From the NCBI GenBank assembly GCA_035528905.1, contig DATKXU010000060.1:8863-72862 (forward strand): a stretch of DNA of 64,000 nucleotides, given 5' to 3'. The notes under the pieces were generated by a model, which was given only the letters and a program-made list of their open reading frames with translations, had not been told where the DNA came from and searched no databases. This document shows positions 15,880 through 54,896 of the stretch, in pieces. Source of the stretch: Armatimonadota bacterium. Its GTDB lineage: Bacteria; Armatimonadota; UBA5829; DTJY01. The number at the start of each line of letters is the position of its first letter. The first letter of the stretch is position 1. The position numbers and the translations under genes are program-made.

Positions 15880-16869
15880 TTGCTCCAGTATGCCAGGTAT
15901 GGTGTGTGGAACGTGCGAGGCAAGAACCAGCGTTGGAAGCCCCCGTCCGGGTGGATTATCGTCGAGAACGCACATCAGGCGTTGATAACGGAGGACGAAG
16001 CCAAAAGGGTAATCGAGGTTCGCAAAAGCATTCACCGTAAAGGGTTGCAGGCTGCTTCCAACAGGAGCAGAAGCTCTTCATATTTGCTCAGCGGGGGCTC
16101 GTTTGTCTGCGGACGTTGCGGGAGCCACATGATGGGGTATCGGCGGAGTGGAGAGGGCACATACTATATCTGTGGTAGTCAGCCTTATCGAAAAGGTATG
16201 GGATGTGGGCCGGGGGTGTATGTACCGCAGCAGGGCTTGGAACAGGAGGTTATCGCTGGTCTCCGCGAGCTGGTCGGTATCTGTGCCGACCCGAACGGCT
16301 TTACCCGTCAGGTGAATGAGGAGCTTCGGCGGCTTTGGGAAGAATCGGTGGGCTACAACCCGACCGATGGAGAGCAGTTGGAGCGGATTGAGGCCAAACT
16401 CGCCAACATCCGCCGGGCGATTGAGGACGGGCTGGCGGACACGACCTGGGCGAACAGCCGTTTGCGGGAACTCTCAGCCGAACGGGATGGGCTGATTTTG
16501 GCTAGTCAGGCGTTGGGCCGGCCTCCTCAGATAGACCGCGACACGGCGATGGCGTACAGGGCGCAGGCGGACAAGATTATGGGAACGGGGACGTATGCGG
16601 AGAAGAAGCAGCTGATCAGGTCATGTGTAGACAGAATAACAATAGCTCCGGATACCTTGGAAGTCGAAATCCAATACAAGGTACCCGAAGCCATTGGTGC
16701 ATTAAGTGGGAGCGGGGGCGTGCTCCGTTGCTATCTACACCGGACTAGCCGCCTGGCTGGTCAGGCGGTATCAGTTGGCGAGGAATGGGAGACATGGAGA
16801 ACACCATTCGATCTAAGCTACGATGTCAGCCAACGCGTTATCATTTGGTCGAACTGCCTCATGATGTAA
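15880..16869 (+). pseudogene. Remnant of a large serine recombinase (recombinase domain + zinc-ribbon only; catalytic resolvase domain missing)
   Basis: About 60% identical to the C-terminal half of the intact recombinase at 53161-54861 (YGVWNVRGK...CGRCG...YYICG). Homology ends exactly at the 14-bp att-like repeat (16705-16718). No N-terminal Ser-catalytic domain. Confidence 0.7.
16705..16718. repeat. Direct repeat AGTGGGAGCGGGGG = duplicated tRNA-Met 3' end (att-like, distal island boundary)
   Basis: Exact 14-nt match to 54816-54829, which overlaps the 3' terminus of the tRNA gene. Confidence 0.55.
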
Positions 16870-17134: not shown

Positions 17135-20100
17135 ATGAGCCAAGAACCGACATACGGAAGGCGTGAAATTCGTGTCTTCATCTCTTCCACATTCCGCGAT
17201 ATGCATGCGGAGCGCGAGGAGCTGGTCAAGCGCGTCTTCCCGCAGCTTCGGAAGCTCTGCGAGCAGCGCGGAGTCGTCTGGGGCGAGGTTGATCTGCGCT
17301 GGGGTGTCACCGACGAGCAGAAGGCCGAGGGCAAAGTGTTGCCCATTTGCCTGGCGGAGATCCAGCGCTGCCGGCCGTATTTCATCGGGCTGCTTGGTGA
17401 ACGCTACGGCTGGGTGCCGGAGGAGATCGATCCTGACCTCGAAGAGCGGGAAAAGTGGCTAAAGGAACACCACGAGCGCTCCGTCACCGAGCTTGAAATC
17501 CTCCACGGCGTGCTTCGCGATCCCAAGATGGCCGACCACGCCTTCTTCTACTTCCGCGACTCTGACTATCTCAACCATCTGCCCGATGGGGCAAAGAGCG
17601 CCGATTTCATCAGCGAGAGCCCAGAATCGGCCGACAAACTGAAGCAGCTCAAAGATAGCATTCGCGCGGCGTATGCAGCGCGCAAGGTCCACAATCCACC
17701 ACGGGAGAATTATCTCACCCCGGAGGCGCTGGGCGAACTGGTTCTTCAGGATCTCACCAACGTCATCGACCGACTGTATCCAATAGGCGAAACCCCCGAT
17801 CCAATCGACCAGGAGGCTATGCGCCATGAGGCCTACGCGCAAAGCCGCCGCCTGGCGTTCATTGGACGGGAGGATCTGCTCAGTCGCGTGGACGAGCAAA
17901 TCTCTTCGGGACAGCAATACCTCGCGCTCACTGGAGAGTCCGGCTGTGGGAAGTCCGCGCTGCTCGCCGAATGGGTGGCTCGTTGGCGAGAAGACCATGC
18001 CGACGACCTCATCATCCAGCATTACATCGGCAGCACACCAGAGAGCGCCGACTGGCAGGGGCTGGTGCGCCGCATCCTCGGCGAACTCAAGCGCGCTTTC
18101 GACATTCCTGACGATATCCCGCTCCAGCCGGACGCCTTGAGGGGCGCGCTTTACGACTGGACGGCGAAGGCCGCCGGTTCGCGCCAAGTTGTGCTCGTGC
18201 TCGACGCGCTCAACCAGCTTACTGATGATAACGTGGCTCGGCAGCTTGGCTGGCTGCCGGTCGTCTTTTCGGCGAATTTTCGCGTGCTCGTCTCCGCGCT
18301 GCCGGGTGACAGCCTGGAAGCTCTGCGCCTGCGCGGTTGGCCGGAGCTGCCCGTGCCACTGTTTGATGAGGCCGACATCGCACCCGCGACGCTGGCTTAC
18401 TTCAAGATCTACAGCAAGACGCCATCAGATGAACTCCTGGCGAAACTGGTGGACACCCCCGCCGCGCGCAATCCACTGTACCTGCGTGCAGTGGCGGATG
18501 AATTGCGCCAGTTCGGCAGTCACGAGGGTCTGCTGGTCATGGCAGATGCTTATCTCGCCGCGCCGGACCTGCCCAGTTTGTATAACCGCATTCTGGCGCG
18601 CTGGCACGACGATTTCGGGCGTGATCCCGAGCATCCCGATGTCGTTCGCCGCTCGCTCTGCTTCATTGCATGCTCCCGGTTCGGGCTTACTGAAGCGGAA
18701 CTGCTCGACCTGCTTGGGAAGCAGAATGAGCGCGGGGAATACGCATCCTTGCCGCGGCACTTCTGGACCCCCTTCTATCTCGCTGCCGAGAGCGCGTTGG
18801 CTCATCGCGCCGGGCTGCTCACCTTCGGTCACGATTTCCTCCGCGCCGCCGTGCAGTCGCGATGGTTGACGGACGCTGAAGCCGTTCGGTCGTTCCGCCG
18901 GCAATTGGCAGACTACTTCGGCGAGACCGCTGATCCTACGGATCGCAAGCTGGACGAGCTGCCCACGCTCCTGCGCGACCTGAAGTTATCGGAGGCGCTG
19001 AAGAACCTGCTCGCCGACATTCCCACATTCCGCCGTCTGCGCTCCACAGAGCGCTGGAAATGGGAACTTCATGGCTTCTGGATCCCGCTGCGACAGCGCT
19101 ATGATCCGGGCGAAGTGTATGAGGCAGCCCTAGCGGTGCTGCAAGCAACAGAGGACGAGACATCTGTTACCAGAAACTGCAGCGAGGTGGCCGTTTTCCA
19201 CCAGGACGCAGGAGATTACGACGCCGCAGAGCCGCTGTTTCGCCGCACGCTGGATGCCAGGGAACGTGCCCTCGGGCCGGAGCATCCGGATACGCTTACC
19301 AGCGTCAACAACCTCGCCTTGCTGCTCTATTCCAAAGGCGACTACGATGCAGCAGAGCCGCTGTTTCACCGCGCGCTGGAGGGTTTTGAGCGCGTCTTCG
19401 GGCCGGAGCATCCGGATACGCTTACCAGCGTCAACAACCTAGCCGGGTTGCTCCTTTCCAAAGGCGACTACGACGCCGCAGAGCCGCTGTTTCGCCGCAC
19501 GCTGGATGCCAGGGAACGTGCCCTCGGGCCGGACCACTCGGATACGCTTGCCAGCGTCAACAACCTAGCCGGGTTACTCATCGAGAGGGGCGACTACGAC
19601 GCTGCAGAGCCGCTGTTTCGCCGCGCGCTGGAGGGTTTTGAGCGCGTCTTCGGGCTGGAGCATCCGAATACGCTGACGAGCGTCGGCAACCTTGCCGGAT
19701 CACTCGAGGACAAGAGCGACTATGACGCTGCAGAGCCGCTGTATCGCCGCGCGCTGGAGGCAAGGGAGCGCGTGCTCGGGCCGGAGCATCCAGCTACGCT
19801 GGCCAGCGTCAACAACCTCGCCGCGTTGCTCTATTCCAAAGGCGACTACGATGCAGCAGAGCCGCTGTTTCACCGCGCGCTGATTGGCAGGGAGCGCATC
19901 CTCGGGATGGACCACTCGGATACCTTGACGAGCGTCTGCGACCTCGCCGTGCTGCTCTATTCTAAAGGCGACTACGATGCCGCTGAGCCGCTGTATCGCC
20001 ACGCGCTGGAGAGCTGCGAGCGCATCTTCGGGCCGGGACATCCGGATACGCTGGGGACTGTCAACAGCCTTGCCTTTTTGCTCAAAGCCAAAGGCGACTA

Positions 20101-20842
20101 CGATGCCGCCGAGCCGCTGTATCGCCGCGCGCTGGAGGCAAGGGAGCGCGTGCTCGGGCCGGAACATCCGGATACGCTCGTGAGCGTCGACAACCTTGCA
20201 TTGTTACTGGACTCCAAAGGCGACTACGATGCAGCGGAGCCGCTGCTTCGCCGAGCGCTGGAGGCAAGGGAACGCGTGCTTGGGCCGGAGCATCCGAATA
20301 CGCTTAATAGTGTCAACAACCTTGCATTCCTACTCTATTCCAAAGGCGACTACGCCGCCGCCGAGCCGCTGTGTCGCCGAGCGCTGGAGGCGGACGAGCG
20401 GAACCTCGGATCGAGCCATCCAAAGGTCGCGGAGGATTTGAATAACCTAGCGTGGACGCTGCGATGCATGGGAGACCTTTCAGGCGCGGAGGAGTGCTAT
20501 CGCCGCGTGCTCGGCATCAACGAAAACGGCATTGGGCCTGAGATCACGCGAGCAGTGGCCATGGCTCACAACGAACTCGCATTCCACTTCGATGTGCCCG
20601 CGCGGAACTGGATTGAGGCGGAGTCCCACTACAGGCGCTCAGTAGAACTTTGGCGCAGTGCAGGTGATCCCGTGCAAGCGGCGAACGTCGAGCTGAATCT
20701 CCAGGTAATGTTCCAGCTTGCCGGGCGCAGGGTAGACGTGCCCCGCGTGAAGGAACTGACCGCGATCCTGGAGAAGGCTCAAGACGAGCGGGCGGAAAAA
20801 GGACACAAGCTTCTTGCATTGCTGGGGCAGGAGCGATCATGA
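17135..20842 (+). CDS. STAND-type P-loop NTPase with N-terminal DUF4062 domain and C-terminal TPR_12-type repeat array (paralog 1)
   Basis: 1235 aa. N-terminus RVFISSTFRDM...DLRWGV...CRPYFIGLLGERYGW (DUF4062 signature). Walker A GESGCGKSAL. About 10 near-identical 42-aa TPR repeats (GDYDAAEPLFRRALE..FGPEHPDTLTSVNNLA). Confidence 0.85.
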   Translation: MSQEPTYGRREIRVFISSTFRDMHAEREELVKRVFPQLRKLCEQRGVVWGEVDLRWGVTDEQKAEGKVLPICLAEIQRCRPYFIGLLGERYGWVPEEIDPDLEEREKWLKEHHERSVTELEILHGVLRDPKMADHAFFYFRDSDYLNHLPDGAKSADFISESPESADKLKQLKDSIRAAYAARKVHNPPRENYLTPEALGELVLQDLTNVIDRLYPIGETPDPIDQEAMRHEAYAQSRRLAFIGREDLLSRVDEQISSGQQYLALTGESGCGKSALLAEWVARWREDHADDLIIQHYIGSTPESADWQGLVRRILGELKRAFDIPDDIPLQPDALRGALYDWTAKAAGSRQVVLVLDALNQLTDDNVARQLGWLPVVFSANFRVLVSALPGDSLEALRLRGWPELPVPLFDEADIAPATLAYFKIYSKTPSDELLAKLVDTPAARNPLYLRAVADELRQFGSHEGLLVMADAYLAAPDLPSLYNRILARWHDDFGRDPEHPDVVRRSLCFIACSRFGLTEAELLDLLGKQNERGEYASLPRHFWTPFYLAAESALAHRAGLLTFGHDFLRAAVQSRWLTDAEAVRSFRRQLADYFGETADPTDRKLDELPTLLRDLKLSEALKNLLADIPTFRRLRSTERWKWELHGFWIPLRQRYDPGEVYEAALAVLQATEDETSVTRNCSEVAVFHQDAGDYDAAEPLFRRTLDARERALGPEHPDTLTSVNNLALLLYSKGDYDAAEPLFHRALEGFERVFGPEHPDTLTSVNNLAGLLLSKGDYDAAEPLFRRTLDARERALGPDHSDTLASVNNLAGLLIERGDYDAAEPLFRRALEGFERVFGLEHPNTLTSVGNLAGSLEDKSDYDAAEPLYRRALEARERVLGPEHPATLASVNNLAALLYSKGDYDAAEPLFHRALIGRERILGMDHSDTLTSVCDLAVLLYSKGDYDAAEPLYRHALESCERIFGPGHPDTLGTVNSLAFLLKAKGDYDAAEPLYRRALEARERVLGPEHPDTLVSVDNLALLLDSKGDYDAAEPLLRRALEARERVLGPEHPNTLNSVNNLAFLLYSKGDYAAAEPLCRRALEADERNLGSSHPKVAEDLNNLAWTLRCMGDLSGAEECYRRVLGINENGIGPEITRAVAMAHNELAFHFDVPARNWIEAESHYRRSVELWRSAGDPVQAANVELNLQVMFQLAGRRVDVPRVKELTAILEKAQDERAEKGHKLLALLGQERS
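19196..20525 (+). repeat. Intragenic tandem 126-bp (42-aa TPR) repeats, ~10 units
   Basis: Repeated ggcgactacgatgc(a/c)gc(a/c)gagccgctgt(t/a)tc(a/g)ccg... visible directly in the sequence. Confidence 0.8.
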
Positions 20843-20876: not shown

Positions 20877-21041
20877 ATGGAGAAACCTTTTTCATTTTCA
20901 CTCAACGCGATAATCAAGGATGATGCCGGGCGTTGCCTTCTCATCAAGCGCTCGATGAACTCCAGAGGCAATCCCGGCAAATGGGATTTCCCGGGCGGCA
21001 AGCTCGACCCCGGCGAGACGTTCGACCGGGGGCTGCTTTGA
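20877..21041 (+). pseudogene. Truncated Nudix hydrolase remnant
   Basis: MEKPFSFSLNAIIKDDAGRCLLIKRS...GKWDFPGGKLDPGETFDRGLL* reproduces the start of a Nudix fold up to the GX5E part of the Nudix box, then stops. No intact REx2EE continuation in any frame. Confidence 0.4.
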
Positions 21042-21239: not shown

Positions 21240-24059
21240 GTGGTTGATAAGAGAAATCACGACAAAACCATTGTCATCGCTGGCGATGTCACGGCGGACT
21301 GGAATATAGCAAGGCTGCGCAAGGACAAGGATAAAGGGCAGGCCTGGAATGCTGACGATACAACAAGGGTCTGTTTCCAGCCGGGTGGAGCAGCTATGCT
21401 GGCGGACGTTGTTGAGGCGATCACGGAGCGACTCCGAAGCGAGGGCCGAGTTGATTGCAGAGTGTCTCGCTTGCAGATACCGGAAGATGGGCTGAACACT
21501 CGCGACTGCCGTTACCATCACTCATACGCGATGTGGGCGCCCAAGGTCTACAGCGCCAAGGAAACAAAGAAATGGGTTTGGCGCGTTGAGGAGTTTCTTG
21601 GCCTGGATCCTGCTAAGGAGTGCGATACCAGTGACAAGACTGGAGCCGCGCATCTGCGTCTATCTGATGATCCCGTGCGTGCCGATGTGGTAGTGTTGGA
21701 CGACGCTAACCTCGGCTTCCGCGAACGAAAGCAGATCTGGCCAAAGGCCGTTCTAGGCAAGACCACTGCTGCATGGATAGTGTGCAAAGTAGCCAGCCCC
21801 GTCGCCCAGGGAGCATTATGGGAACATCTTATCGCCAATTGCGCATCGCACACTATTGCCGTGATGACCGTCAATGACCTAAGACGCACCGAAGTCAATA
21901 TCAGCCGTGGCCTGTCGTGGGAGAGGACAGCCCAAGACCTGTTCTGGGAGCTTACGCACAATCCCATGATCAATGGTCTGTCCCGATGCGCACACGTGAT
22001 CGTGTCCGTAGGGACTGCTGGTGTGCTGCGGCTGTCGCAAGTAAGCGGAGGGAAGTCTGACAGCACGGAGATATGCTCGGAATGCAAGCTCTTCTTCGAT
22101 CCCAAGTCCGCTGAGGCCTCCTGGGGACGCGAATATCCGGGAGGCATGATCGGTTACAACACTTGCCTCGCCGCAAGCATCACACGGGAGTTGATCCTGC
22201 AACCTGACGCCTCCACAATTGACGATGGGATTCAGTCGGGTATGGAGGCGATGCGGACGCTCCACATCGAGGGCTATGGTTCGCAGCACCCCAAGGAGAG
22301 CCTGAACGCGCCGACATTCCCTGTCAGTGCTGTAGTAGAGGCCATGTGGTCGGGCAGGGAACCTCTCCAGGTGGCGTCAGTTCAGGACCCTGTCCGATTC
22401 CTGCACGATCCATCGTCTGAGGCAAAGAGGACTGCTCCCGGATTCTGGACGATTCTGGACGACGTCTGTTCGGGGCGCGGTACGGGAAACCAGAGCCACT
22501 GCTCGCTTAATGAAATGGCCAGGAGCATTGTCGTCGATGGGCTGGACGTGGGGCTTGAGGGGATTCCACTTGGCAAGTTTGGCGGCCTCACCACTGCAGA
22601 CAGGCACGAGATCGAGGGCTATCGCAGCATCCATTCCCTCATGGTCGAGTACAGCACGAGCCACAAGGGCAACCCGCTGTGCATTGCGGTTTTTGGCCCT
22701 CCCGGATCCGGGAAATCGTATGGCGTAAAGCAAGTAGCCAAGTCAATCACGCAAGTTGTCATCGAGCCAATAACGTTCAATCTGTCGCAGTTCAATGATC
22801 CGGCCGAACTGGTCAGTGCGTTCCACCAGATCAGAGACATCAGCCTATCCGGAAAAATGCCGCTGGTGTTCTGGGATGAGTTTGACGCCACGCTCAACGG
22901 TCAGAAAACCGGATGGCTGCGTTACTTCCTCTCGCCGATGCAAGACGGCGAGTTTCAGGATGCGCAGATCACCTATCATATCGGGCGAGCGATTTTCGTG
23001 TTTGCTGGCGGCACACGCACTCGAATAGAGAAGTTCGACCGGACGGTCGACGAGGAAGCTCTGAAGATGTCGTCGGGTGAGGATAAGCAAGAGGCCCACG
23101 ACTTCAAGGACGCCAAGGGCCCGGACTTCGTAAGCAGGCTGAACGGTTTTGTCAATATTCTTGGGCCGAACAGGTTAGATGAAAGTGTTCTGGGGGGCGA
23201 TGAACATTTCATCATACGCAGAGCCGTTATCCTGCGTCAGTTGATGCAGCGACATGCATCGCAGTTTTTCTCGGAGCCAGACGGAGAAGGGACTCTCAGC
23301 ATTGACAGCGGTCTGCTGCGCGCGTTCCTGCAGACATCCAAGTATAAGCACGGCGTCAGGTCAATGGAAGCCATCATCACAATGAGCACGCTGTCGGGCA
23401 GGAATACCTTTGAGCGTTCGTGCCTGCCGTCAGAGGCGCAGCTCAATCTGCACGTAGACGGGCTGGAGTTCCTGGCTATAGTGCAGCAACCTGAGCTTGA
23501 CAGCAAACAACTGCTCGACAAGCTTGCGCGGGCGAATCACGAGGTGTATTGCGTGAGCCTTAAGGGCAAACCAGGCGCACCTGCCGAGGCGTCCCTCACG
23601 TACGATCAGCTTAGTGAGCATTTGCAGGATCAGAACGAAGACGCCGTTCGTGACATACCTAGCAAGCTGAGCTCCATTGGTCACGTGATGATCCCGGCGC
23701 GCAGTGATGACCCTCCATTTGACTTTCCCGGGCCTTACCTTGAGCAGCTTTCCGAGGCAGAGCATACGCGCTGGCTGAAAGCGAAATTGGCCGCGGGATG
23801 GAGATACGGGGATCCCCCGAAGTCCAATGAAGCCAAGACCAACCCCGCGATGTGCCCGTGGCAGAAGCTGTCTGATGAGGAGATTGCACAGCAGGAGAAG
23901 TGGTTGGCCGAGGCAATAGGATCCGGGAGAGTCGAAAACAGAGATTTACCGGACGACGAGAAGGACAAAGACCGGGAACTAGTCCGAGGGATACCGAAGG
24001 TGCTGGCGCTAGCGGGATATACGATTGTCGACCTACGGAGTTGTGCTAAGCGCTCGTGA
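21240..24059 (+). CDS. Large AAA+ ATPase with C-terminal RyR domain and ~450-aa N-terminal domain of unknown function
   Basis: 939 aa. Walker A VFGPPGSGKSYG, Walker B LVFWDEFD. C-terminal EHTRWLKAKLAAGWRYGD...EKWLAEAI matches the RyR-domain pattern. N-terminal region (TIVIAGDVTADW...GGAAMLADV) weakly Rossmann/ribokinase-like. Confidence 0.78.
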   Translation: MVDKRNHDKTIVIAGDVTADWNIARLRKDKDKGQAWNADDTTRVCFQPGGAAMLADVVEAITERLRSEGRVDCRVSRLQIPEDGLNTRDCRYHHSYAMWAPKVYSAKETKKWVWRVEEFLGLDPAKECDTSDKTGAAHLRLSDDPVRADVVVLDDANLGFRERKQIWPKAVLGKTTAAWIVCKVASPVAQGALWEHLIANCASHTIAVMTVNDLRRTEVNISRGLSWERTAQDLFWELTHNPMINGLSRCAHVIVSVGTAGVLRLSQVSGGKSDSTEICSECKLFFDPKSAEASWGREYPGGMIGYNTCLAASITRELILQPDASTIDDGIQSGMEAMRTLHIEGYGSQHPKESLNAPTFPVSAVVEAMWSGREPLQVASVQDPVRFLHDPSSEAKRTAPGFWTILDDVCSGRGTGNQSHCSLNEMARSIVVDGLDVGLEGIPLGKFGGLTTADRHEIEGYRSIHSLMVEYSTSHKGNPLCIAVFGPPGSGKSYGVKQVAKSITQVVIEPITFNLSQFNDPAELVSAFHQIRDISLSGKMPLVFWDEFDATLNGQKTGWLRYFLSPMQDGEFQDAQITYHIGRAIFVFAGGTRTRIEKFDRTVDEEALKMSSGEDKQEAHDFKDAKGPDFVSRLNGFVNILGPNRLDESVLGGDEHFIIRRAVILRQLMQRHASQFFSEPDGEGTLSIDSGLLRAFLQTSKYKHGVRSMEAIITMSTLSGRNTFERSCLPSEAQLNLHVDGLEFLAIVQQPELDSKQLLDKLARANHEVYCVSLKGKPGAPAEASLTYDQLSEHLQDQNEDAVRDIPSKLSSIGHVMIPARSDDPPFDFPGPYLEQLSEAEHTRWLKAKLAAGWRYGDPPKSNEAKTNPAMCPWQKLSDEEIAQQEKWLAEAIGSGRVENRDLPDDEKDKDRELVRGIPKVLALAGYTIVDLRSCAKRS

Positions 24060-24361
24060 AAGGGAATGATTTGGAGTTGTCATACGCACCGAAACCGATT
24101 GACACATCAGATATCAAGTTAAGTGAGGATCTGCTTGGGCTCACCGAGCGCCTCGCGGAAAACGCCCATGACATTTGGGCGAAGCAACGCATGGCTGACG
24201 GATGGACCTAGGGTCCGTAGCGTAACGACGCGGCCAAGACGCATCCCGACCTGGTGCCGTACTCTGATCTGCCCGAGTCGGAGAAAGAATACGACGGAAA
24301 CACCGCGATGGAGACACTGAAGGCCATCGTGGCCTTCGGATACAAGATCGAGACAGGATAG
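24050..24361 (+). pseudogene. Disrupted second RyR domain (frame-shifted relative to upstream gene, two in-frame TAG codons)
   Basis: Frame +2 reads LSEDLLGLTERLAENAHDIWAKQRMADGWT*GP*RNDAAKTHPDLVPYSDLPESEKEYDGNTAMETLKAIVAFGYKIE. This is a near-canonical RyR domain with TAG at the conserved Tyr and Val positions of GWTYGPVR. Confidence 0.55.
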
Positions 24362-24413
24362 ATCGCGGCAGGCATCGGGAAATGCGTTGCCCATAGAGAA
24401 GGAGTGATGTGAA

Positions 24414-26003
24414 GTGGATTATTCCGATTGCAAGTTTGTTCGCAGGCTCTATGAAGCGGAGAACAGATACCTTGAGGTGCTGCTTGAAGCGTTGGTCCTC
24501 AAACGATCTGGCCTCGGCATAGAGCTTGAGGTACAGTTCGACCGACAGTCTTACGTTGTTTGGAATGAGTCGGGTAAGACTGAAGTCAGGCTCAAGATGG
24601 GGGAACGCCAGGGGAAGACACGTGAGTTGCAGCGAAGACTGGATGCTTTTCTATTGCAGGGCGAGGGCGAGAAACTGGTGATAGAGCAGCCGAACTCCCC
24701 GTTTAGGTACGCTAGCGGAGGGACGCTGCCGGTCATTTGGATGGAGGGTAAGCAGTATTACTGTCTTTATTTTCGGGATATCTTTCCAACAGGCTGGAAC
24801 ATAGTGAACGGAGGCTGCGATTCATGGGTAGAGTTATGCCGTTTGTCCGACACCATTGAGCGGGAACTCCGGGAGGAACTCCTCATAATAGATCCCGCGA
24901 ATGGGAAACGGTTCGTCTTCAAGGACGATCTGGGGAGATCTCTTGATCGTCCTGAGTTCGCGGAAGCACGCCGGTTTTGGCATAAACAGAGGCCCGATCG
25001 GCATATCGAGGATTTCGAGGAGCACTTGGTAACGCCCAGGTGGCTCACAGGCCCTGACTCGGTTCGAATAGCAGATGTGGAAGGTGAATCAGTCGAAGCC
25101 ATATCTGACTGCTTTCTCAATATACGGGCGGAAGACTTTGGCATAGAGGTAGACAGAATTGCCAACATCCGTGTCGTTAGCGATGTTGTGTTTCTTGATG
25201 GCGAGGTTATGGGTGGAAGCCTAGGAGCGCATGGCTCCAAGCGCCGTCGCTTGGTAGACGCGCCGATCGGTCTTTTTGAGACTTCGAAGTTCGACAGCCT
25301 GCTGCAAAGCGGTGCGGTCGAATTCCTGCCTGATCGGCTATATCGAAGCGCTCAAGAAGTCGATGCGAAGATGACCAAGCAGATTGTCGAGAAGTTTCTT
25401 GAGGATATCAGGGACTGGCGGAACGAAAAGCAGATCAGGGAGTTCATGGAGTGCAAGCGCAGAGGCGTTCTCTATGATCTGTGCCCGATAGCTCGGGGTA
25501 TCATTTCCAGATACTTGAGACTGTCCGAGACCGAGCGTGATAAAGGACCCACTCCCATCGAAGGCAGATTGCCCAGGCGAGAGGGATTTGACGTGTTCAT
25601 TTCCTATGGCGGCGAGGACGTAAGACTGGCCAGGAGGGTGTACAACTACATCCAGAAGAACACCGGCCTCTCTTCCTTCTTCAGCGAAGAGGAGATGACG
25701 GATACGGATTTCGGCAAGGTCATCAACGACGCTCTTTCGTCCGCGAAATGCCTCGTTGCTGTGGCAACAAATCCTGAACATTTGAAAAAACCACACCCCG
25801 AGCACGAGTGGAATAGTTTCCACCTCGAAATGCTACACGGGAAAGAGAAACGCCAGATTGTCTCGTTCATTTATGGATGTGATCCGATGGATCTCCCTTG
25901 GGTGCTCCGACACAAGGAAGTAGTGGTCTGTCGGAGCGAACGTGATAGGGGTGCATTGAAAAGGCTCGAGAAACGGATTCGACTGGCATTTCCGACATGC
26001 TAA
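24414..26003 (+). CDS. Nudix-like (N-terminal) / TIR (C-terminal) fusion protein
   Basis: 529 aa. GWNIVNGGCDSWVELCRLSDTIERELREELLI has Nudix-box-like spacing with an intact REUxEE core. C-terminus DVFISYGGEDVRLARRV...LVAVATNPE...HEWNSFHLEM matches the TIR-domain pattern. Confidence 0.7.
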   Translation: MDYSDCKFVRRLYEAENRYLEVLLEALVLKRSGLGIELEVQFDRQSYVVWNESGKTEVRLKMGERQGKTRELQRRLDAFLLQGEGEKLVIEQPNSPFRYASGGTLPVIWMEGKQYYCLYFRDIFPTGWNIVNGGCDSWVELCRLSDTIERELREELLIIDPANGKRFVFKDDLGRSLDRPEFAEARRFWHKQRPDRHIEDFEEHLVTPRWLTGPDSVRIADVEGESVEAISDCFLNIRAEDFGIEVDRIANIRVVSDVVFLDGEVMGGSLGAHGSKRRRLVDAPIGLFETSKFDSLLQSGAVEFLPDRLYRSAQEVDAKMTKQIVEKFLEDIRDWRNEKQIREFMECKRRGVLYDLCPIARGIISRYLRLSETERDKGPTPIEGRLPRREGFDVFISYGGEDVRLARRVYNYIQKNTGLSSFFSEEEMTDTDFGKVINDALSSAKCLVAVATNPEHLKKPHPEHEWNSFHLEMLHGKEKRQIVSFIYGCDPMDLPWVLRHKEVVVCRSERDRGALKRLEKRIRLAFPTC

Positions 26004-26066
26004 GCGCACGCATGTCGCTCGGCTATCGGATATACAAGGACTAGGGCAGGGAGAAGGTGAGCTAAG

Positions 26067-27143
26067 ATGCATCCCTATCGTGTGTTCTTGAGTTACTCCC
26101 GGGAAGACCAGGAACTGGTTGACAAGATCGTCGCGATCCTCGAGGACGAACGGCTCGGTCTGGTCCCGAGGTTCGACCGGGACCTGCGATTAGGCAACCC
26201 GTTTGCAGAGGGCATAAAATCTCTGATCGAGACCTCACACGTATTCGTCCCGGTACTTACCGCCAACTCCAAAGACCGGCCGTGGGTCCACCAGGAGATC
26301 GGCTACGCCATGGGATGGGGCGTACCTATATTGCCGATTGCGATAGACGTGGACCCCGGCCAGATGATCCAGGGTCTCCAGGCGATCAAGGTTGACGAAG
26401 AACTCTATGGTTTGCTGGAGAACCTGGTCAAACGGCAGTCAGACATAGACCGCGCCGTGATGGAAGCCGGAAGCAAGGCACAAGGCAGGTTTGAGTGCGC
26501 AGTATACCCCGAAACTCGCACGCAGTTGATCGCGGAATATGCGGAGCGTGTGCGTCAACTCGCCAGCCACTGCAGGATACGACAGAGGGGAGCTTTCTCC
26601 TCGTTCAGTCTGCCGAGAGAGCACTTCAGCGATCCTGTCTGGCTGAAACGCGACTACCCTAAGCCGCGGAGTGAGCACTATCGGATGCTCCAGTGGTGCG
26701 AAAGAATGGCTCTCGAGGAACACGCCGTGAACGCAGGCTGTGATTTGCTCATCGACCCCAGTGTACCTTACGATAAGAAGGGCCAGCAGGCGAGGAACGT
26801 TCGGCTGGAAACGCTGGTCAGGTTCCTGGAGTCGATGCCCGAATCCCTTGTGCGCGTAGCGACGACCGAGGCGGCACGCCGCGAGAACACGCTGATAGTT
26901 GGCGACTGGTTCTATTGCCAATCGATGGCGCCTAAGCCTGGCGTCGGCTACTACCAGACCATCTTCACCTGGCACGCCCCGAGGGTGCTCTTGGAGATGA
27001 GACAGTTTGATCAGATGTTTCTGAACTACTACGTTGAGGACGGCCGTTCCCGTGACCGGGCTATTAATGCGATCGAGGAGGTCATCGGAACGTCCGTGCC
27101 ATCGACAGCCAGTGCGCCAAGTGTAGGACCAAATGCTGACTGA
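26067..27143 (+). CDS. TIR-domain protein with ~230-aa C-terminal domain of unknown function
   Basis: N-terminus RVFLSYSREDQELVDKIVAILE...VFVPVLTANSKDRPWVHQEIGYA is a TIR pattern. The remainder has no recognisable motif. Confidence 0.72.
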   Translation: MHPYRVFLSYSREDQELVDKIVAILEDERLGLVPRFDRDLRLGNPFAEGIKSLIETSHVFVPVLTANSKDRPWVHQEIGYAMGWGVPILPIAIDVDPGQMIQGLQAIKVDEELYGLLENLVKRQSDIDRAVMEAGSKAQGRFECAVYPETRTQLIAEYAERVRQLASHCRIRQRGAFSSFSLPREHFSDPVWLKRDYPKPRSEHYRMLQWCERMALEEHAVNAGCDLLIDPSVPYDKKGQQARNVRLETLVRFLESMPESLVRVATTEAARRENTLIVGDWFYCQSMAPKPGVGYYQTIFTWHAPRVLLEMRQFDQMFLNYYVEDGRSRDRAINAIEEVIGTSVPSTASAPSVGPNAD

Positions 27144-27251
27144 ATTGCGGGAGTGGCGACTTGCAGTGCCCGGGGCATAGTAGATGCCGAGGAAGTCCGG
27201 GATACGGGCTTCCGCGTTGCGGTTGACACCAAGCATTGAGGAGAACAAGCA

Positions 27252-36196: not shown

Positions 36197-39100
36197 ATGC
36201 CCCGAATCTTCGACAACATCGGTGAGAAGCTGCTTCCAGCCCTACAGACAACGCTGGACGTATCCGACCGAGCGGATTTCTGTGTCGGCTACTTCAACCT
36301 GCGAGGGTGGAGGCAACTTGATTCAAGAATCGAGCAATGGTCAGGTGAGGATGGCCAATGCTGTCGGCTTCTCGTCGGGATGCAGACTTTGCCCCATGAT
36401 GAACTCCGGCACTCCCTCAGCTTCGTCTCCGAGGGTCTTGGTCTTGACAATCAGGCAGTTGTTCGCCTGAAGAAGAAACTGGCAGAGGAATTCCGGGACC
36501 AAATCGCCATGGGGGTTCCGACCAACGAGGACGAAGCTGGTCTTCGACGGCTTGCCAACCAGATCCGCAGTCGGAAAGTCCAAGTCAAGCTGTTTCTCAG
36601 ACATCCGCTTCATGCCAAGCTATACCTGCTGTTCCGGCAGGATTATAACAACCCGATCACCGGTTTCCTTGGGAGCAGCAACCTTACCCTGCCGGGACTG
36701 TCCAGCCAGGGCGAACTGAACATCGATGTAACCGACCGTGACGCCTGTGAGAAGCTGGCACAATGGTTTGAAGACCGATGGAATGACAGATGGTGCCTGG
36801 ACATCTCCGATGAACTGATTCAGATAATTGACGAAAGCTGGGCTGGAGAGAACGAGATTCCACCATATCATATTTACTTGAAAATGGCATACCACCTCTC
36901 GCAGGAAGCCCGTGCCGGTTTGTCCGAGTTCCGGCTTCCCAGGGAATTTGGCGAAAAGCTTTTCGAGTTTCAGAAAGCGGCAGTCAAGATAGCCGCACAT
37001 CACCTGAACAAGCGTGGGGGTGTGCTTGTTGCCGATGTAGTAGGACTTGGCAAGACGCTGACCGCTTGTGCTATTGCCCGGATATTCCAGGACGACCACT
37101 TCCTGGAAACGCTCGTCATCTGCCCGAAGAACTTGGTGAAGATGTGGCAGGACCACGTCGAGCACTATCGTATGATCGCCAGGGTGTTGCCTATCAGCAC
37201 GGCAATCAACAGCCTACCGGATCTTCGCAGATACCGAGTGATCATAATCGACGAGAGCCATAACCTGCGGAACCGGGAAACGAAAACCTACCATGCCCTG
37301 TATGACTATATTTTCAAGAATGATAGCAAATGCATTCTGCTCACCGCCACTCCATACAACAAGACTTACCTCGATCTCTCCAGTCAACTGCGCCTGTTCG
37401 TGCCGGAAGATGCCGATCTAGGAGTCCGACCCGAGCGTAAGCTTCAAGAGCCGGGCGGCGAAGTCGAGTTCGTAAGGCGGCATCAGTGTCCTGTCCGCTC
37501 GCTTTCCGCTTTCGAGAAGAGCGATTACACGGAGGACTGGCAGGAACTTATGCGGCTCTTTATGGTTCGCCGGACCAGGAGCTTCATCCAAAAGAACTAC
37601 GCCGAAGTTGATCCTGACAACGGTCGGACGTATCTCACAATGGAAGACGGCAAGAGATCGTACTTCCCCGTCCGAAAACCCAAGACAGCGAAGTTTACGG
37701 TGAACGATGCTGACCCATCAGACCAGTATGCAAGGCTGTATGCGCCTTTCGTGGTGAATGCGGTAGCTTCGCTCGAACTCCCCAGGTATGGATTGGGTAA
37801 CTACATCGCCCAGAATCCTGAGGAACCGCCGACAGCCAGGGAGGAGAAAGGCATCAGGGACCTCGGACGTGCCGGCAAACGGCTCATGGGCTTCTGCAGG
37901 ACGAATCTGTTCAAGCGACTGGAAAGCGGCGGATTGACATTCCTGCAGTCGGTCAATCGCCACATCCTGCGGAACCACGTTTTCATCCATGCAATCGAGA
38001 ACGACCTCCCACTTCCAATCGGCACTCAGTACATCGAGCTTTTCGATACTCGGCTCAAGGACGAGGATTCGGATGCTTGCACATACAGCCTCATGAACGG
38101 CGATGAGGAATATTCGTGCGACATTCACGAGGCAAACAGCGTGGTTTACTCCGAGGAGCTGTACAGGAAAAGGGCCGCGGAGATATATGGGGAATATGCC
38201 GGTCCGCGCAAGAGACAGTTCCACTGGCTCCGTCCGTCTTTGTTTGTTGCGGACCTGAGAGACAGCCTCAGGCGCGACGCAAAAACCCTTCTATCCGTAC
38301 TCGATAACTGCGGCGATTGGATTCCAGACAGTGATGCGAAGCTCGAAGCCCTGTTCAAGCTACTGACCGTGACCCACCCAAGCGAAAAGGTTCTCGTGTT
38401 CACACAGTTCGCCGACACGGTGCGCTATCTGGATGCCGAGTTGAATAAGCGGGGCGTAACCGCCATGGAGGGCGTAACCGGCGATTCAGCAGATCCGACG
38501 GGGTCGGCTTGGAGGTTCAGTCCGAACAGCAACGAGAAACGCGACAAGGTGAAACCGGAGGACGAACTGAGGGTCCTGATTGCTACCGATGTCTTGAGCG
38601 AAGGGCAGAATCTCCAGGACTGCAACATAGTCGTGAATTACGATCTCCCGTGGGCGATCATCAGGCTTATACAACGGGCCGGACGCGTGGACCGCATCGG
38701 TCAGGAAGCTGAGGAAATCCTGTGCTACTCCTTCGTACCCGCAGATGGTGTCGAGCGGCTTATCCGACTCAGGGCGAGAGTCAGGCAGAGGCTTCGGGAA
38801 AATGCCGAAGTTGTCGGCACAGACGAAGCATTCTTCGAAGACGACATGACCGAGAAACAGCTAAGGGACATATTCACGGAGAAATCCGGGCTAATGGACG
38901 AACAAGAGGATGACGACGTAGACCTCGCGTCCTATGCTTACCAGATCTGGAAGAATGCCGTGGACCGTGACCCCAAGCTGGCCGGTATCATTCCTGACAT
39001 GCCGAACGTCACTTACTCGGCCAAGGCTCATAAGGCTACCCCGAAGAGCCCTCACGGCGTCCTCGTCTACATGCGTACAGCCGAGGATAACGACGCCCTG

Positions 39101-39589
39101 GCATGGATGGATGAGAACGGAAACAGCATCACCCAATCCCAGCTTGCTATTCTGAGAGCCGCCGAGTGCCTGCCCGATACACCGGCTATCCCCCGGCACG
39201 AGCGACATCACGAACTGGTGAAAGCTGGAGTCGAGCATCTCGTGAAGGAGGAGAAATCCGTCGGCGGTCAACTTGGTCGCCCGTCAGGCGCCAGATTCAA
39301 AACGTACGAGAGGCTGAAACGCCATGCCGGGGAGGTCAAGGGCACGATCTGGGATACGCCCGAACTGGAGAAGGCGCTCGACGACATATACCGGTATCCA
39401 CTCAAGCAGACAGCCACGGACACGCTGAACCGTATCATCAAGAGCGGAGTCACTGACGACATCCTCGCCGATGTGGTCATCAACCTGCGGAATGAGGATA
39501 AGCTGTGCATGGTTCAGGAGGAGGCTGAGCGACACGAACCCAAGCTGATCTGTTCTCTAGGACTGTTCGAGGCGGAGGGAGGTCGGTAG
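36197..39589 (+). CDS. SNF2-family helicase with N-terminal PLD-family (HKD) nuclease domain
   Basis: 1130 aa. HKD motif LHAKLYLL...GSSNLT. SF2 motifs LVADVVGLGKTLTA, IIIDESHNLRN. Helicase-C motifs LIATDVLSEGQNLQDC and RAGRVDRIGQ. Confidence 0.85.
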   Translation: MPRIFDNIGEKLLPALQTTLDVSDRADFCVGYFNLRGWRQLDSRIEQWSGEDGQCCRLLVGMQTLPHDELRHSLSFVSEGLGLDNQAVVRLKKKLAEEFRDQIAMGVPTNEDEAGLRRLANQIRSRKVQVKLFLRHPLHAKLYLLFRQDYNNPITGFLGSSNLTLPGLSSQGELNIDVTDRDACEKLAQWFEDRWNDRWCLDISDELIQIIDESWAGENEIPPYHIYLKMAYHLSQEARAGLSEFRLPREFGEKLFEFQKAAVKIAAHHLNKRGGVLVADVVGLGKTLTACAIARIFQDDHFLETLVICPKNLVKMWQDHVEHYRMIARVLPISTAINSLPDLRRYRVIIIDESHNLRNRETKTYHALYDYIFKNDSKCILLTATPYNKTYLDLSSQLRLFVPEDADLGVRPERKLQEPGGEVEFVRRHQCPVRSLSAFEKSDYTEDWQELMRLFMVRRTRSFIQKNYAEVDPDNGRTYLTMEDGKRSYFPVRKPKTAKFTVNDADPSDQYARLYAPFVVNAVASLELPRYGLGNYIAQNPEEPPTAREEKGIRDLGRAGKRLMGFCRTNLFKRLESGGLTFLQSVNRHILRNHVFIHAIENDLPLPIGTQYIELFDTRLKDEDSDACTYSLMNGDEEYSCDIHEANSVVYSEELYRKRAAEIYGEYAGPRKRQFHWLRPSLFVADLRDSLRRDAKTLLSVLDNCGDWIPDSDAKLEALFKLLTVTHPSEKVLVFTQFADTVRYLDAELNKRGVTAMEGVTGDSADPTGSAWRFSPNSNEKRDKVKPEDELRVLIATDVLSEGQNLQDCNIVVNYDLPWAIIRLIQRAGRVDRIGQEAEEILCYSFVPADGVERLIRLRARVRQRLRENAEVVGTDEAFFEDDMTEKQLRDIFTEKSGLMDEQEDDDVDLASYAYQIWKNAVDRDPKLAGIIPDMPNVTYSAKAHKATPKSPHGVLVYMRTAEDNDALAWMDENGNSITQSQLAILRAAECLPDTPAIPRHERHHELVKAGVEHLVKEEKSVGGQLGRPSGARFKTYERLKRHAGEVKGTIWDTPELEKALDDIYRYPLKQTATDTLNRIIKSGVTDDILADVVINLRNEDKLCMVQEEAERHEPKLICSLGLFEAEGGR

Positions 39590-39592
39590 CGG

Positions 39593-42500
39593 GTGCGGCT
39601 GAACGTAGCGAAAGTCCGAGAATACCTGCGCGCGTGCCAGTTCAGGAACCTGTTCATTGAGGAACTGGGATGGAGCCACTGTACACTCTCACCCATAACC
39701 GTTTCCGTGGATGGAGAGGACTACACCCTTAGTGCCATCTCCGAAATGGGCGGTTTGGTCGCCTTGCAGTGCAAACCAGCTTCAAACGGTAGGATCCCCG
39801 AGTATCACATCAGGCGAAAGATAGACCGACTTGTTACCAAGCTGCATTACGAGCACATTATCATCTATTGCGGTGGCAACCAGCAGGTCTGGCAGTGGGT
39901 GAAGAAAGAACCCGGCAGGCCGTCCGCACCCCGTGAGCATCCCTTCCGCTACGACCAGTCGGGTACGCCGCTGATCCAGAAGCTCGATGGGCTTGTCTTC
40001 ACGCTGGAAGAACTCGATGGCGAGGGCAACGTCTCGATCAAGGCTGTCTCCGAGCGGGTTAAGTCCGCCCTTGATATCGATAAGGTCACGAAGCGTTTCT
40101 ACGACCGCTTCAAGGTCGAATTGGAGGTGTTCAAGGGGTTCATCAAGGGTATTTCGAATGCCGCCCACACGGACTGGTATGCCTCCCTGATGCTGAACCG
40201 CCTGATGTTCATCTACTTCGTCCAGAAGAAAGGTTTCCTGGACAACGACAGCAGCTACCTCCGCAACAGGCTTCGAATGGTTCAGGAGAAACGCGGGCAG
40301 AACCGGTTCTACTCCTTCTACCGCAGTTTCCTGAGAGTGCTGTTCCACGAAGGGCTGAATTCCAGAGAGAGAACCCCCGAACTACTCGAGCTACTGGGGA
40401 ACGTGCCTTATCTGAACGGCGGTCTCTTTGAAGAGCACGAGCTCGAGCAGGAAAACCCCGATCTCGACATCCCCGATGAAGCGTTCGAGCGCATGTTCGA
40501 TTTCTTCGACCAGTACGAATGGCATCTCGATATCCGCCCGATGCGAAACGACCGGGAGATCAACCCCGACGTGCTCGGCTACATCTTCGAGAAGTACATA
40601 AACGCAATCCAGCCGGGCGAGCAAAAGGCGAAGGGCGCATACTATACCAAAGAGGATATCACCGGCTATATTTCCCAGAACACGATCATTCCATATCTCT
40701 TCGATGCCGCCAGGCGAAAATGCGCCATTGCGTTTGAGGGAGAGCAGTCCGTATGGAGGCTTCTGCAGGAGAATCCCGATGCTTATATCTACCCGGCGGT
40801 CAAGCTAGGAGTCATAGACAGGCAACGGAACGTCCTGCCCGAATCCATGCTGCCGGATTTCGTCCAGCGTGGGATGCGCGATCCCAAGGCAAGGATGTTC
40901 GACAACCGGTACAACCTTACGGGAGCCGACCTTCGAGATGAGGAGGGAAATAGGCTCACTCTGCCCACCGAGACCTGGCGGGAGTACGTAGAGCGGCGAA
41001 AGCGCTGCCTGGACTTGCGTTCGAAGCTCGGAGCAGGTGAGGTGAAGTCCATTGATGACCTAATCACCTACAATCTGGACATTCGGCAGTTTGCCCAGGA
41101 CGTGATCGAGAATTCAGAGGGGCCGGAACTGCTCCGGGCGTTCTACTCGGCAAGCCAGAGCGTCACTGTGCTCGACCCTACTTGCGGGTCGGGAGCGTTC
41201 CTGTTTGCCGCATTGAACATCCTTGAGCCGCTTTACGAGGGGTGTCTCGAACGGATGCAGGAGTTTGTCAGCGAACTGGACACCTCTCAGGAAAAGCAGG
41301 ACCCCAGGAAGTACTCGGACTTCCGCCGGATACTGGAAGCTGTGGCGCAACATCCAAACCAGCCATATTTCATCTTCAAGTCCATCATCCTGAACAACCT
41401 CTTCGGCGTGGATATCATGCCGGAGGCGGTGGAGATATGCAAGCTCCGCCTGTTTCTGAAACTTGCGGCTCAGGTGGAGCCGGATAGATCGAAGGACAAT
41501 ATGGGGCTTGAGCCGCTGCCCGACATAGACTTCAACATCCGGGCCGGGAATACACTGGTCGGATTTGCCACATATGATGAGGTAAAATCGGCGGTCATGG
41601 GTAGCGACCAGAAGCGCATGGATGTTTTTGATGAGATGTCACCGATTGAAGAAAAGGCCCAGGAGGTGGAGAGGCTATGGCAAAGATTCCGCGAGCAGCA
41701 GGAGATGCTGGACGGCGGGGAGATCACTGCCAGAGACAAGCAGGAGTTGCGAAACGAGCTGGCGCCGCTGGAAGAGGAGCTGAACAGGTATCTCGCAAAG
41801 CAGTACGGCGATGCCGCCAGGGACTACGAAGGTTGGCTTGCATCACACCGGCCGTTCCACTGGTTCATCGAGTTTCATGGCATTATGAGCCGTGGCGGGT
41901 TTGATGTCGTGCTTGGGAACCCGCCCTATGTCGAGTTCAGCAAGGTAGTGGATGATTATAGCGTGAAGGGTTACTCAACGTTGGAATGCGGAAACCTCTA
42001 CGCCTTCGTTGTCGAGCGAATCTGTGGTTTGGTTAGGAAGATACTTGGCAGATCAGGTATGATTATACCCCATTCAGCCATTTGCACTGACAGGATGGCC
42101 CCACTACAGAGGGTATTCCGTGAAGCTGCGGATACGTTATGGGTCTCATCCTATGATATACGTCCAGCTAAGTTGTTTGATGGCGTGGATCAGAGGTTAG
42201 CCATATACATGATCAAGCATGGAAACGGTACGGACGTAACGGTGATTGCTTCTCGATACCATCGCTGGCATGGTGAGTTCCGTCCCTTCATCATGGGATC
42301 GCTCAAGTACGTCGATGTGTCCGATATGGGATTTCCTAACTCTATCCCGAAGGTAGACAGCCTCTTGGAGACCTCACTCTGGACCGACCTTAGCGCATGG
42401 CCTAAATTGGCCATGGAGTTTGTCGGCTACCGAACCCCCAGCGTTGTGTACTACCACAATGCGCCACGTTACTGGAACCGAGCAATGAGCTTTGCCCCCT

Positions 42501-53160: not shown

Positions 53161-53164
<4 letters not shown>
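53012..53164 (+). CDS. Ribbon-helix-helix (CopG/Arc-like) DNA-binding protein, putative recombination directionality/regulatory factor
   Basis: 50 aa MVRYTIRMPDKLHEKIRRLAYQERRSQHEIMLEVLEKAL (beta-strand + two helices). ATGA overlap with the recombinase start. Strong RBS. Confidence 0.55.

Positions 53165-54896
<1,732 letters not shown>

Follow-up and report, generated by a model that had tools for sequence, protein, structure and literature searches.

A RyR-domain AAA+ protein beside Nudix-TIR and TIR genes on an Armatimonadota island: a candidate combination from a modular TIR neighbourhood

In a 64,000-nucleotide stretch of the genome of an Armatimonadota bacterium (assembly GCA_035528905.1, contig DATKXU010000060.1, positions 8,863 to 72,862 of the forward strand; hereafter the window), three consecutive genes on one strand encode a PfkB-like AAA+ protein with tandem RyR domains (P1), a Nudix-fold domain fused to a TIR domain (P2), and a TIR protein with a private C-terminal domain (P3). 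We read this block as an instance of a recurrent, mix-and-match immune neighbourhood based on nicotinamide adenine dinucleotide (NAD+) and TIR chemistry, Thoeris-like in character, in which a RyR-sensing ATPase acts as a hub for interchangeable TIR sensors. We place the probability of this reading at about one half; in its favour are, among other points, the recurrence of TIR and TIR-like genes in same-strand runs with P1 homologues and the kinship of the P1 RyR domain to phage proteins that bind TIR products.

An earlier reading of the window, made by a model without database searches (the sequence-only reading), had described these genes as a candidate defence module. The coordinates and plus strand that it gave for the three open reading frames (ORFs) were exact, and its domain calls for P1, P2 and P3 all hold, several of them now with fold-level support. 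The block encodes identical protein sequences in four independent assemblies. Its features are listed below; residues of the P1 RyR repeats were placed by alignment to RyDEP, a phage RyR-domain protein (for repeat 2, RyDEP of phage DyoEdafos).

21240-24059, plus strand: P1, 939 residues, with PfkB-like, AAA+ and tandem RyR domains
21264-22559, plus strand: P1 N-domain, predicted PfkB/ribokinase fold, residues ~9-440
22647-23489, plus strand: P1 AAA+ core, with Walker A GPPGSGKS (residues 486-493) and Walker B VFWDEFD (543-549)
23505-23684, plus strand: P1 RyR repeat 1, degenerate, with H767, Y770 and N799
23727-24032, plus strand: P1 RyR repeat 2, with H842, W845 and D911 at RyDEP positions
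24071-24364, plus strand: RyR-only pseudogene, ~97 codons, in the 355-bp gap between P1 and P2
24414-26003, plus strand: P2, 529 residues, predicted Nudix-fold domain (residues 1-376) fused to TIR (392-524)
24792-24887, plus strand: P2 Nudix-like box, G127-W128...G134x5E140x9R150-E151-L-x-E154-E155
25587-25985, plus strand: P2 TIR domain, Pfam TIR_2 E 5.5e-10, with E465 at the catalytic position
26067-27143, plus strand: P3, 358 residues, TIR (residues 4-125) and C-domain (140-340)

Gene neighbourhoods of P1 and P2

Neighbourhoods were counted in two sets of loci, individual members of which are cited below by L numbers. The P1-centred set comprised 80 metagenome loci, 51 of which had at least 3 kb of flanking sequence and were used for run counts, a run being defined as co-directional genes with gaps of at most 400 bp. 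The P2-centred set comprised 79 loci from species-representative genomes, 69 of them usable. A TIR gene or a TIR-like DUF4062 gene was present in the run of P1 at 29 of 51 loci (57%), and on this count the link between RyR-ATPase and TIR genes that the sequence-only reading had suggested is conserved; DUF4062 is, according to a preprint, a TIR-like NADase with a role in phage defence, named 'Swarozyc' (10.64898/2026.05.01.722283). A SLOG-like gene was found in the run at 20 of the 51 loci and a TrkA_N gene at 16, and at least one of the three associated types (TIR/DUF4062, SLOG-like, TrkA_N) at 38. The same-strand genes that follow P1 in this set encode SLOG/NDT-like proteins of about 185 residues, membrane TrkA_N or TrkA_N-RyR proteins, varied TIR architectures, and DUF4062-STAND proteins; the SLOG-like domain also occurs in fusions, either with SLATT transmembrane modules or at the C-terminal end of P1.

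In the P2-centred set, a RyR-domain protein lay within 8 kb of P2 at 17 of the 69 loci, a P1 homologue at 9 and a P3 homologue at 1. RyR proteins are rare, yet roughly 25% of P2 loci have one. Where the families meet, gene order varies. In L025 (Acidobacteriaceae), P1, a SLOG-like protein of 556 residues, P3 and P2 are encoded co-directionally in that order, while L082 runs RelA_SpoT-SLOG-RyR, Nudix, DUF4062-STAND, P2, P1 and TIR genes, and L005 (Brocadiaceae) has P2 and, further along, P3, a RyR protein and TrkA_N. P3 precedes P1 in L168, the two are divergent in L170, and L050 and L052 share the order P1, RyR-only gene, P2. Altogether, the same families are found together, in varied order, in at least four phylum-level lineages.

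These patterns support one part of the proposed three-gene module and not the other: the families do recur together in other phyla (L025, L082, L005), but they do not form a conserved three-gene unit, as the counts for P1 (9/69) and P3 (1/69) at P2 loci indicate. A fixed three-gene operon was accordingly rejected; P2 and P3 occur mostly without P1, and it follows that the block is one of the combinations to which a modular neighbourhood gives rise. Any functional unit that exists would be wider than three genes and would also take in the DUF4062-STAND proteins, the RyR pseudogene and the membrane protein with a TrkA_N domain. The window fits this wider syntax of P1 loci, including the flanking STAND genes, the TrkA_N gene and the RyR-only pseudogene.

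P1 and its RyR domains

P1 belongs to a family of more than 1277 homologues of about 900 residues, with 47-50% identity across phyla, archaea included. In its AlphaFold2 (AF2) model (predicted local distance difference test, pLDDT, 81.4), the N-domain is predicted to adopt a PfkB/ribokinase-like fold. The AAA+ core is matched by Pfam AAA (E 3.4e-5; 24.7 bits against a cutoff of 21.2), and both Walker motifs are invariant in the family alignment. The C-terminal region is matched by Pfam RyR (E 1e-9; 38.9 bits against a gathering cutoff of 27.4), and over profile positions 774-864 the family profile matches RyR2 in the PDB with an E value of 1e-20. Since repeat 1 is degenerate, the tandem would provide one pocket, that of repeat 2. 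Here H842, W845 and D911 correspond to H75, W78 and D117 of RyDEP, and within the family each of them is either invariant or conserved to 90% or more.

The sequence-only reading stated that no function is assigned to bacterial RyR domains, which newer work has overtaken (PMC13232231). RyDEP proteins, the RyR-domain proteins of phages, either bind 2'cADPR and 3'cADPR (cADPR, cyclic ADP-ribose), both products of TIR enzymes, or hydrolyse them; they do so through H75, W78, H100 and D117, and by this means counter TIR signalling as anti-Thoeris proteins (PMC13232231, 2026 preprint). When eight RyDEP homologues were tested, 6/8 bound the signal and 0/8 cleaved it, despite high conservation (PMC13232231). 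P1 itself had no match among 50,697 phage records, and on that ground we rejected it as a candidate phage counter-defence gene. In Mycobacterium phage DyoEdafos (L174, 48806-51556), the RyDEP gene sits between genes for ribose-phosphate pyrophosphokinase and nicotinamide phosphoribosyltransferase; a pairing of RyR with ribose or NAD salvage thus occurs as neighbouring genes in DyoEdafos and, through the PfkB-like domain, within one polypeptide in P1.

A further RyR domain lies between P1 and P2. The RyR-only pseudogene matches the full Pfam RyR domain (E 1e-35, 122 bits), shares about 40% identity with RyDEP of DyoEdafos, and has all four ligand residues. Two in-frame TAG stops interrupt it with a spacing of three codons (GWT*GP*R), and its sequence is identical in the four independent assemblies. 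Intact RyR-only genes of 170 residues occupy the same position between P1 and P2 in L050 and L052, both metagenome-assembled genomes of Deltaproteobacteria.

Two P1 homologues were found on plasmids of cultured strains. On Clostridium estertheticum plasmid pCF009-b (L175), P1 stands alone between chemotaxis and histidine-kinase genes. On plasmid pA of Methylobacterium sp. FF17 (L176), it is divergent from the gene of a 2082-residue SIR2-family protein, SIR2 being an NAD+ consumer.

The TIR proteins P2 and P3

The P2 family has 263 detectable members, mostly of about 500 residues, which are spread over many phyla and share one architecture; their N-terminal 380 residues are more conserved than the TIR domain. 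Within this N-domain, the box residues G127-W-N...G133-G134x5E140x9R150-E151-L-x-E154-E155 are invariant in 113 sequences. Relative to the consensus GX5EX7REUXEEXGU, the box has a spacer of x9 and not x7, and the terminal Gly is absent. P2 had no Pfam NUDIX match, a PDB profile search with it returned TIR matches only, and alignment of the box to a canonical Nudix alignment with hhalign gave a weak match (pairwise E 0.013, probability 3.3%). As sequence methods gave no clear Nudix call, fold comparison was needed. By this approach the N-domain is predicted to have a Nudix alpha/beta/alpha fold, and the best non-TIR Foldseek match of P2 was the Nudix domain of NrtR with bound ADP-ribose. The earlier description of a Nudix-like domain retaining the REUxEE core thus gains support at the level of the fold and from the invariance of that core.

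The P2 profile matches SARM1 and TIR-STING. P3 has a TIR domain with a stronger Pfam match (TIR_2, E 5e-17) and an invariant W73-V-H-Q-E77 motif; the catalytic glutamate that the sequence-only reading had suggested looking for is accordingly found, and invariant, in both proteins (E465 in P2, E77 of WVHQE in P3). P3 also gives weak matches to the PADLOC ThsB models (E 1.8e-7). Its C-domain had no Pfam match in any of 40 members and no PDB match. An exhaustive profile search recovered the C-domain in 606 clusters at 50% identity, almost all of them with the TIR plus C-domain architecture; rare additional fusions to HAD, a Ser/Thr kinase or a second TIR were uninformative. In a housekeeping region of L164 (6209-9038), a gene for a 594-residue TIR protein lies immediately upstream of a P3 homologue, and in L172 (8001-11225) a gene for a 714-residue PFK-domain protein lies 13 bp downstream of one.

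Proposed mechanism and alternative explanations

In the scheme that we favour, TIR-superfamily sensors (P2, P3 and the three DUF4062-STAND-TPR proteins encoded around the block) would make an ADP-ribose (ADPR)-type nucleotide upon infection. P1 would be the constant part, with the pocket of RyR repeat 2 reading the ADP-ribose-type TIR product; the bound ligand would then switch the AAA+ ring of P1 and its PfkB-like ribose/nucleoside-binding domain to an effector or amplifier state. The Nudix domain of P2, in which the metal-binding glutamates are intact, probably edits the TIR product by cleaving its pyrophosphate. This could have either of two outcomes: a cADPR isomer may be matured into a molecule resembling phosphoribosyl-AMP (pRib-AMP), or ADPR may be destroyed, such that phages could not rebuild NAD+ and its loss would become irreversible. 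Accessory buffers or effectors may be supplied by the TrkA_N membrane protein and by the RyR-only gene, of which the window has a decayed copy. What the analysis shows are the folds, the conserved catalytic and ligand residues and the counts of neighbouring genes; what the signal is, which way signalling runs, what P1 does as an effector and that the block has a defence phenotype are inferred, and the same applies to the coupled production and editing of an NAD-derived messenger that the sequence-only reading had put forward. A more specific form of the scheme appears doubtful to us, namely that host tandem RyR domains are receptors of TIR-made cyclic-ADPR-type signals, in a widespread and so far undescribed Thoeris-like family with a PfkB-like AAA+ hub, and that the Nudix-TIR protein both makes and trims the signal (e.g., from 2'cADPR to a pRib-AMP-like molecule).

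The scheme must be weighed against a number of observations that do not favour it. None of the associated domains was present in P1's run at 13 of 51 loci, and the SLOG-like label of the ~185-residue neighbours is weak, coming from motifs and from the SLATT fusions, these proteins having no Pfam match and a best PDB match to nucleoside 2-deoxyribosyltransferase (NDT) at E 0.4. TIR genes showed no clear excess near P1 (29/349, 8.3%) over more distant positions in the same loci (5/80, 6.3%); this test is not discriminating, because the distant genes sit in the same islands, and the argument for P1-TIR adjacency therefore rests on the same-strand runs and not on a clean background. At 52 of 69 loci P2 has no RyR neighbour, its neighbours being otherwise unconserved, and no P2-type N-domain was found in the P1-centred metagenome loci. 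P1 lacks a nearby TIR gene on plasmid pCF009-b, which calls for caution regarding an obligatory TIR partner, and P3 was solitary (L171, L173) or otherwise paired (L164, L172) in 4 of 7 sampled contexts. With respect to the domains, the P1 N-domain had no match in Pfam, NCBIfam or a PDB profile search, and the canonical GAGD motif of PfkB catalysis could not be made out in it; by secondary-structure register, the corresponding position appears to be G-M-I-G305-Y306. Finally, repeat 2 of P1 has N867 where RyDEP has H100, and its pocket contains a 26-residue insert.

Several of these points are what one would expect if the block were a set of independent single-gene systems sharing an island, with P2 and P3 as self-contained sensor-TIR proteins that act by NAD+-depleting abortive infection, in the manner of standalone TIR proteins and Swarozyc, the STAND proteins Avs-like, and P1 an unrelated system or regulator. 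We consider this possible, at distinctly less than even odds. The mostly unconserved surroundings of P2 (no RyR protein at 52/69 loci and no P1 at 60/69), the solitary or otherwise paired P3 homologues, the solitary P1 of the Clostridium plasmid and the non-discriminating near-versus-far comparison would all agree with it. So would a scan of the block for promoters and terminators, in which counts were at chance level and no intergenic signals marked an operon, and the treatment of standalone TIR proteins as probable NAD+ depleters in a recent survey (Yirmiya 2025 preprint). Genes that merely share an island would, however, not readily account for same-strand, short-gap runs of P1 with TIR or DUF4062 genes at 57% of P1 loci, for the joint recurrence of the families in different orders in at least four phylum-level lineages, for the fusion of the SLOG-like domain to P1 in some homologues, or for a RyR gene at 25% of P2 loci when the RyR domain is rare; moreover, the RyR fold binds TIR products experimentally (PMC13232231).

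One may postulate a different role for P1, as a signal terminator or guard against autoimmunity, in which the H842/D911 dyad of the RyR pocket would cleave or sequester cADPR isomers and the ribokinase-like domain would process the released ADPR or ribose. The true effectors would then be SLOG-SLATT, TrkA_N-RyR or TIR NADase proteins, with P1 setting the threshold of TIR signalling. The two dyad residues are conserved in repeat 2, a ribose/nucleoside-kinase fold is present in P1, the RyDEP gene is flanked by ribose/NAD-salvage genes, and the SLOG-SLATT membrane proteins that adjoin P1 resemble classical effectors. Nevertheless, we find this role improbable: none of the eight RyDEP homologues cleaved the signal while six bound it (PMC13232231), Asn replaces H100 in P1, an AAA+ ring of ~900 residues would be elaborate for a simple hydrolase, and no other gene of the neighbourhood is as conserved and constant as P1, a trait more in keeping with an effector or hub.

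A non-immune function, as an NAD+/ADPR-based stress, dormancy or kin-conflict network like those described for multicellular or social bacteria (STAND/TPR 'conflict systems') or as a regulator of NAD and ribose pools, is very improbable. In its favour, TPR-S and TCAD9 ternary-system domains adjoin P3 homologues, Kaur et al. 2020 describe architectures similar to the STAND-TPR ones seen here, housekeeping or signalling genes surround some homologues of P1 and P3, and the cross-phylum identity of P1 is unusually high for a defence gene. Against it, the island that holds the window copy is integrated at a tRNA and contains restriction-modification-like and other defence genes, anti-phage roles have been shown experimentally for TIR and DUF4062 families (10.64898/2026.05.01.722283 and the Yirmiya 2025 preprint), and phages encode RyR proteins specifically against TIR signalling (PMC13232231).

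Comparison with known systems

The sequence-only reading had not recognised the gene combination as a named system, and PADLOC v2 likewise gave no system-level match for P1, P2, P3 or the conserved neighbours of P1. In the literature searched, the coverage of which was incomplete, we found no paper that ties host RyR-domain ATPases to TIR, SLOG or Nudix genes. A survey of TIR signalling that describes 29 Thoeris configurations does not mention RyR, Nudix or AAA in its text (Yirmiya 2025 preprint).

The likeness to Thoeris (types I-XI; ThsB with ThsA or other effectors) lies in TIR proteins with a catalytic Glu beside a larger protein that has a nucleotide-binding sensor domain, in the presence of several divergent TIR genes per locus, in the defence-island setting and in NAD+-derived chemistry. 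Thoeris loci with multiple thsB genes likewise combine one constant partner with diverse TIR genes. This arrangement also appears in the Yirmiya 2025 preprint. The effectors described for Thoeris (SIR2-SLOG, Macro-TM, caspase-like, DUF2270 and others) are absent here, and PADLOC gave no match to ThsA or another effector for P1 or its neighbours; the candidate sensor is instead a tandem RyR on a PfkB-like AAA+ protein. The TIR partners are multidomain proteins (Nudix-TIR, TIR-X and DUF4062-STAND-TPR), and they are less tightly associated than the genes of a fixed two-gene operon.

Editing by Nudix proteins is known from plant TIR signalling, where it involves pRib-AMP/ADP, NUDT6/7 and Nudix effectors. 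What P2 would share with plant Nudix editing and with NrtR is a Nudix domain that acts on or binds ADPR-type TIR products; what distinguishes P2 is that Nudix and TIR form one polypeptide, in which the Nudix-fold domain measures ~380 residues and has large insertions.

As in Swarozyc and Avs-like STAND systems, the products of the flanking STAND genes have a TIR-like DUF4062 domain at the N-terminus, then an NTPase that oligomerises and repeats that act as sensors, which suggests a target-triggered NADase activity. KpSwz (Swarozyc) is described as having a different auxiliary domain and portal-triggered activation and as acting alone; the window proteins carry STAND and TPR regions, and genes of this kind are recurrent same-strand neighbours of the RyR-ATPase.

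P1 and the pseudogene belong to the same domain family as RyDEP and other phage RyR proteins (R12, PF02026). RyDEP is a phage homodimer of ~140 residues that destroys or sequesters host signals, whereas P1 is encoded by the host, next to the very TIR genes, and has its two RyR repeats in one chain as part of an ATPase. Two single-gene, domain-level PADLOC candidates, PDC-S07 (Nudix) and PDC-S33 (RelA_SpoT), match genes that accompany P2 and P1 in related loci (E 5e-19 and 3e-16, respectively); a Nudix remnant upstream of the block is of the same type as the PDC-S07-matching gene, and P1, P2 and P3 are not covered by either model.

Implications

Enzymes with TIR domains that make immune signals from NAD+ are common to bacteria, plants and animals. 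To our knowledge, few bacterial receptors of TIR signals are known, SLOG and Macro being among them. Should the RyR domain of P1 prove to be such a receptor, a large family (>1,200 homologues, spread over many bacterial phyla and present in some archaea too) would join the TIR-signalling repertoire, the RyR-domain sponges and glycosidases of phages would be explained, and the long-debated direct action of cADPR-type molecules on the RyR repeat domain would become testable in a simple bacterial protein. The more specific form of the scheme, were it true, would provide a prokaryotic antecedent for the action of cADPR on animal ryanodine receptors and for plant TIR/pRib-AMP signalling. The Nudix-TIR fusion offers a one-protein model for the editing of TIR products, which is relevant to plant immunity, and may be a host counter-move to the rebuilding of NAD+ from ADPR by phages. 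The homologues on pCF009-b and on Methylobacterium plasmid pA, both from cultured strains, make experiments feasible.

Flanking genes and the island

STAND NTPase genes lie on both sides of the block, as the sequence-only reading had noted, and a third is found farther along. The genes around the block are as follows (E values from Pfam):

17135-20842, plus strand: STAND NTPase 1; DUF4062 E 3.9e-14, AAA_16 E 9e-9, TPR_12 E 1e-137
20877-21041, plus strand: truncated canonical Nudix gene, 54 codons; NUDIX E 3.3e-9, profile positions 7-45 of 134
27252-30746, plus strand: STAND NTPase 2, with AAA_16/NACHT and TPR; DUF4062 E 1.3e-10, AAA_16 E 1.8e-8
30769-31536, plus strand: membrane-anchored TrkA_N (NAD-binding Rossmann) protein; TrkA_N E 1.9e-18
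31592-35122, plus strand: STAND NTPase 3, with TPR; DUF4062 E 3.6e-12, NACHT E 2.7e-6

The TrkA_N protein of the window clusters with the family whose genes directly follow P1 in L093, L101 and L155. STAND/TPR lengths in the near-identical assemblies L001-L003, compared with the window genes at 17135-20842 and 27252-30746, differed (1129 versus 753 + 356 residues, split; 1212 versus 1116 residues), which suggests that the sensor regions vary fast by repeat number or frameshift.

The Nudix remnant at 20877-21041, proposed from the sequence, proved to be real by its Pfam match. A second RyR pair recurs near homologues of P2, P1 and P3, consisting of a RelA_SpoT-LSDAT/SLOG-RyR protein of ~850-870 residues and a canonical Nudix protein of ~140 residues; it was seen at L082 (250-3302) and L170 (731-3724), and also in L015, L016, L021 and L010. 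Intact Nudix genes of 121-150 residues stand beside the RelA_SpoT-SLOG-RyR genes in L082, L015, L021 and L170, and the window remnant looks like a relic of such a pair.

The description of the region as an integrative island is also apt, and given its ends and its defence-type cargo it may fairly be labelled an integrative defence island. At one end, an intact large serine recombinase gene (53161-54861) overlaps tRNA-Met (54818-54894, minus strand); at the other, the serine recombinase (15880-16869) is truncated, its resolvase catalytic domain missing. The cargo also includes restriction-modification-like, ImmA/DUF4411 and Mrr_N genes. On the plus strand at 36197-42973, a PLD-SNF2/helicase fusion of 1130 residues is directly followed by an Eco57I/MmeI-like N6-methyltransferase of 1126 residues, and this pair is probably a separate restriction-modification- or DISARM-like system. 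At 43010-44643, also on the plus strand, an ImmA/IrrE metallopeptidase gene (378 residues) overlaps a DUF4411 gene (166 residues), a probable toxin-antitoxin-like or regulatory pair.

Several small ORFs without a Pfam match separate this pair from the gene at 45449-46084. Its product is DprA-like, as had been claimed (E 1.7e-8), but the gene is 20 kb away and shows no link to the block. We rejected it as a member of the system, since its context offers no support, the gene lying past the restriction-modification-like and probable toxin-antitoxin pairs; the SLOG-like genes that accompany P1 elsewhere belong to another family and are absent from the window. On the minus strand, an antisense ORF of 558 residues (26439-28115) overlaps P3 in its 3' portion as well as the beginning of STAND NTPase 2, and is most likely a GC-rich shadow ORF.

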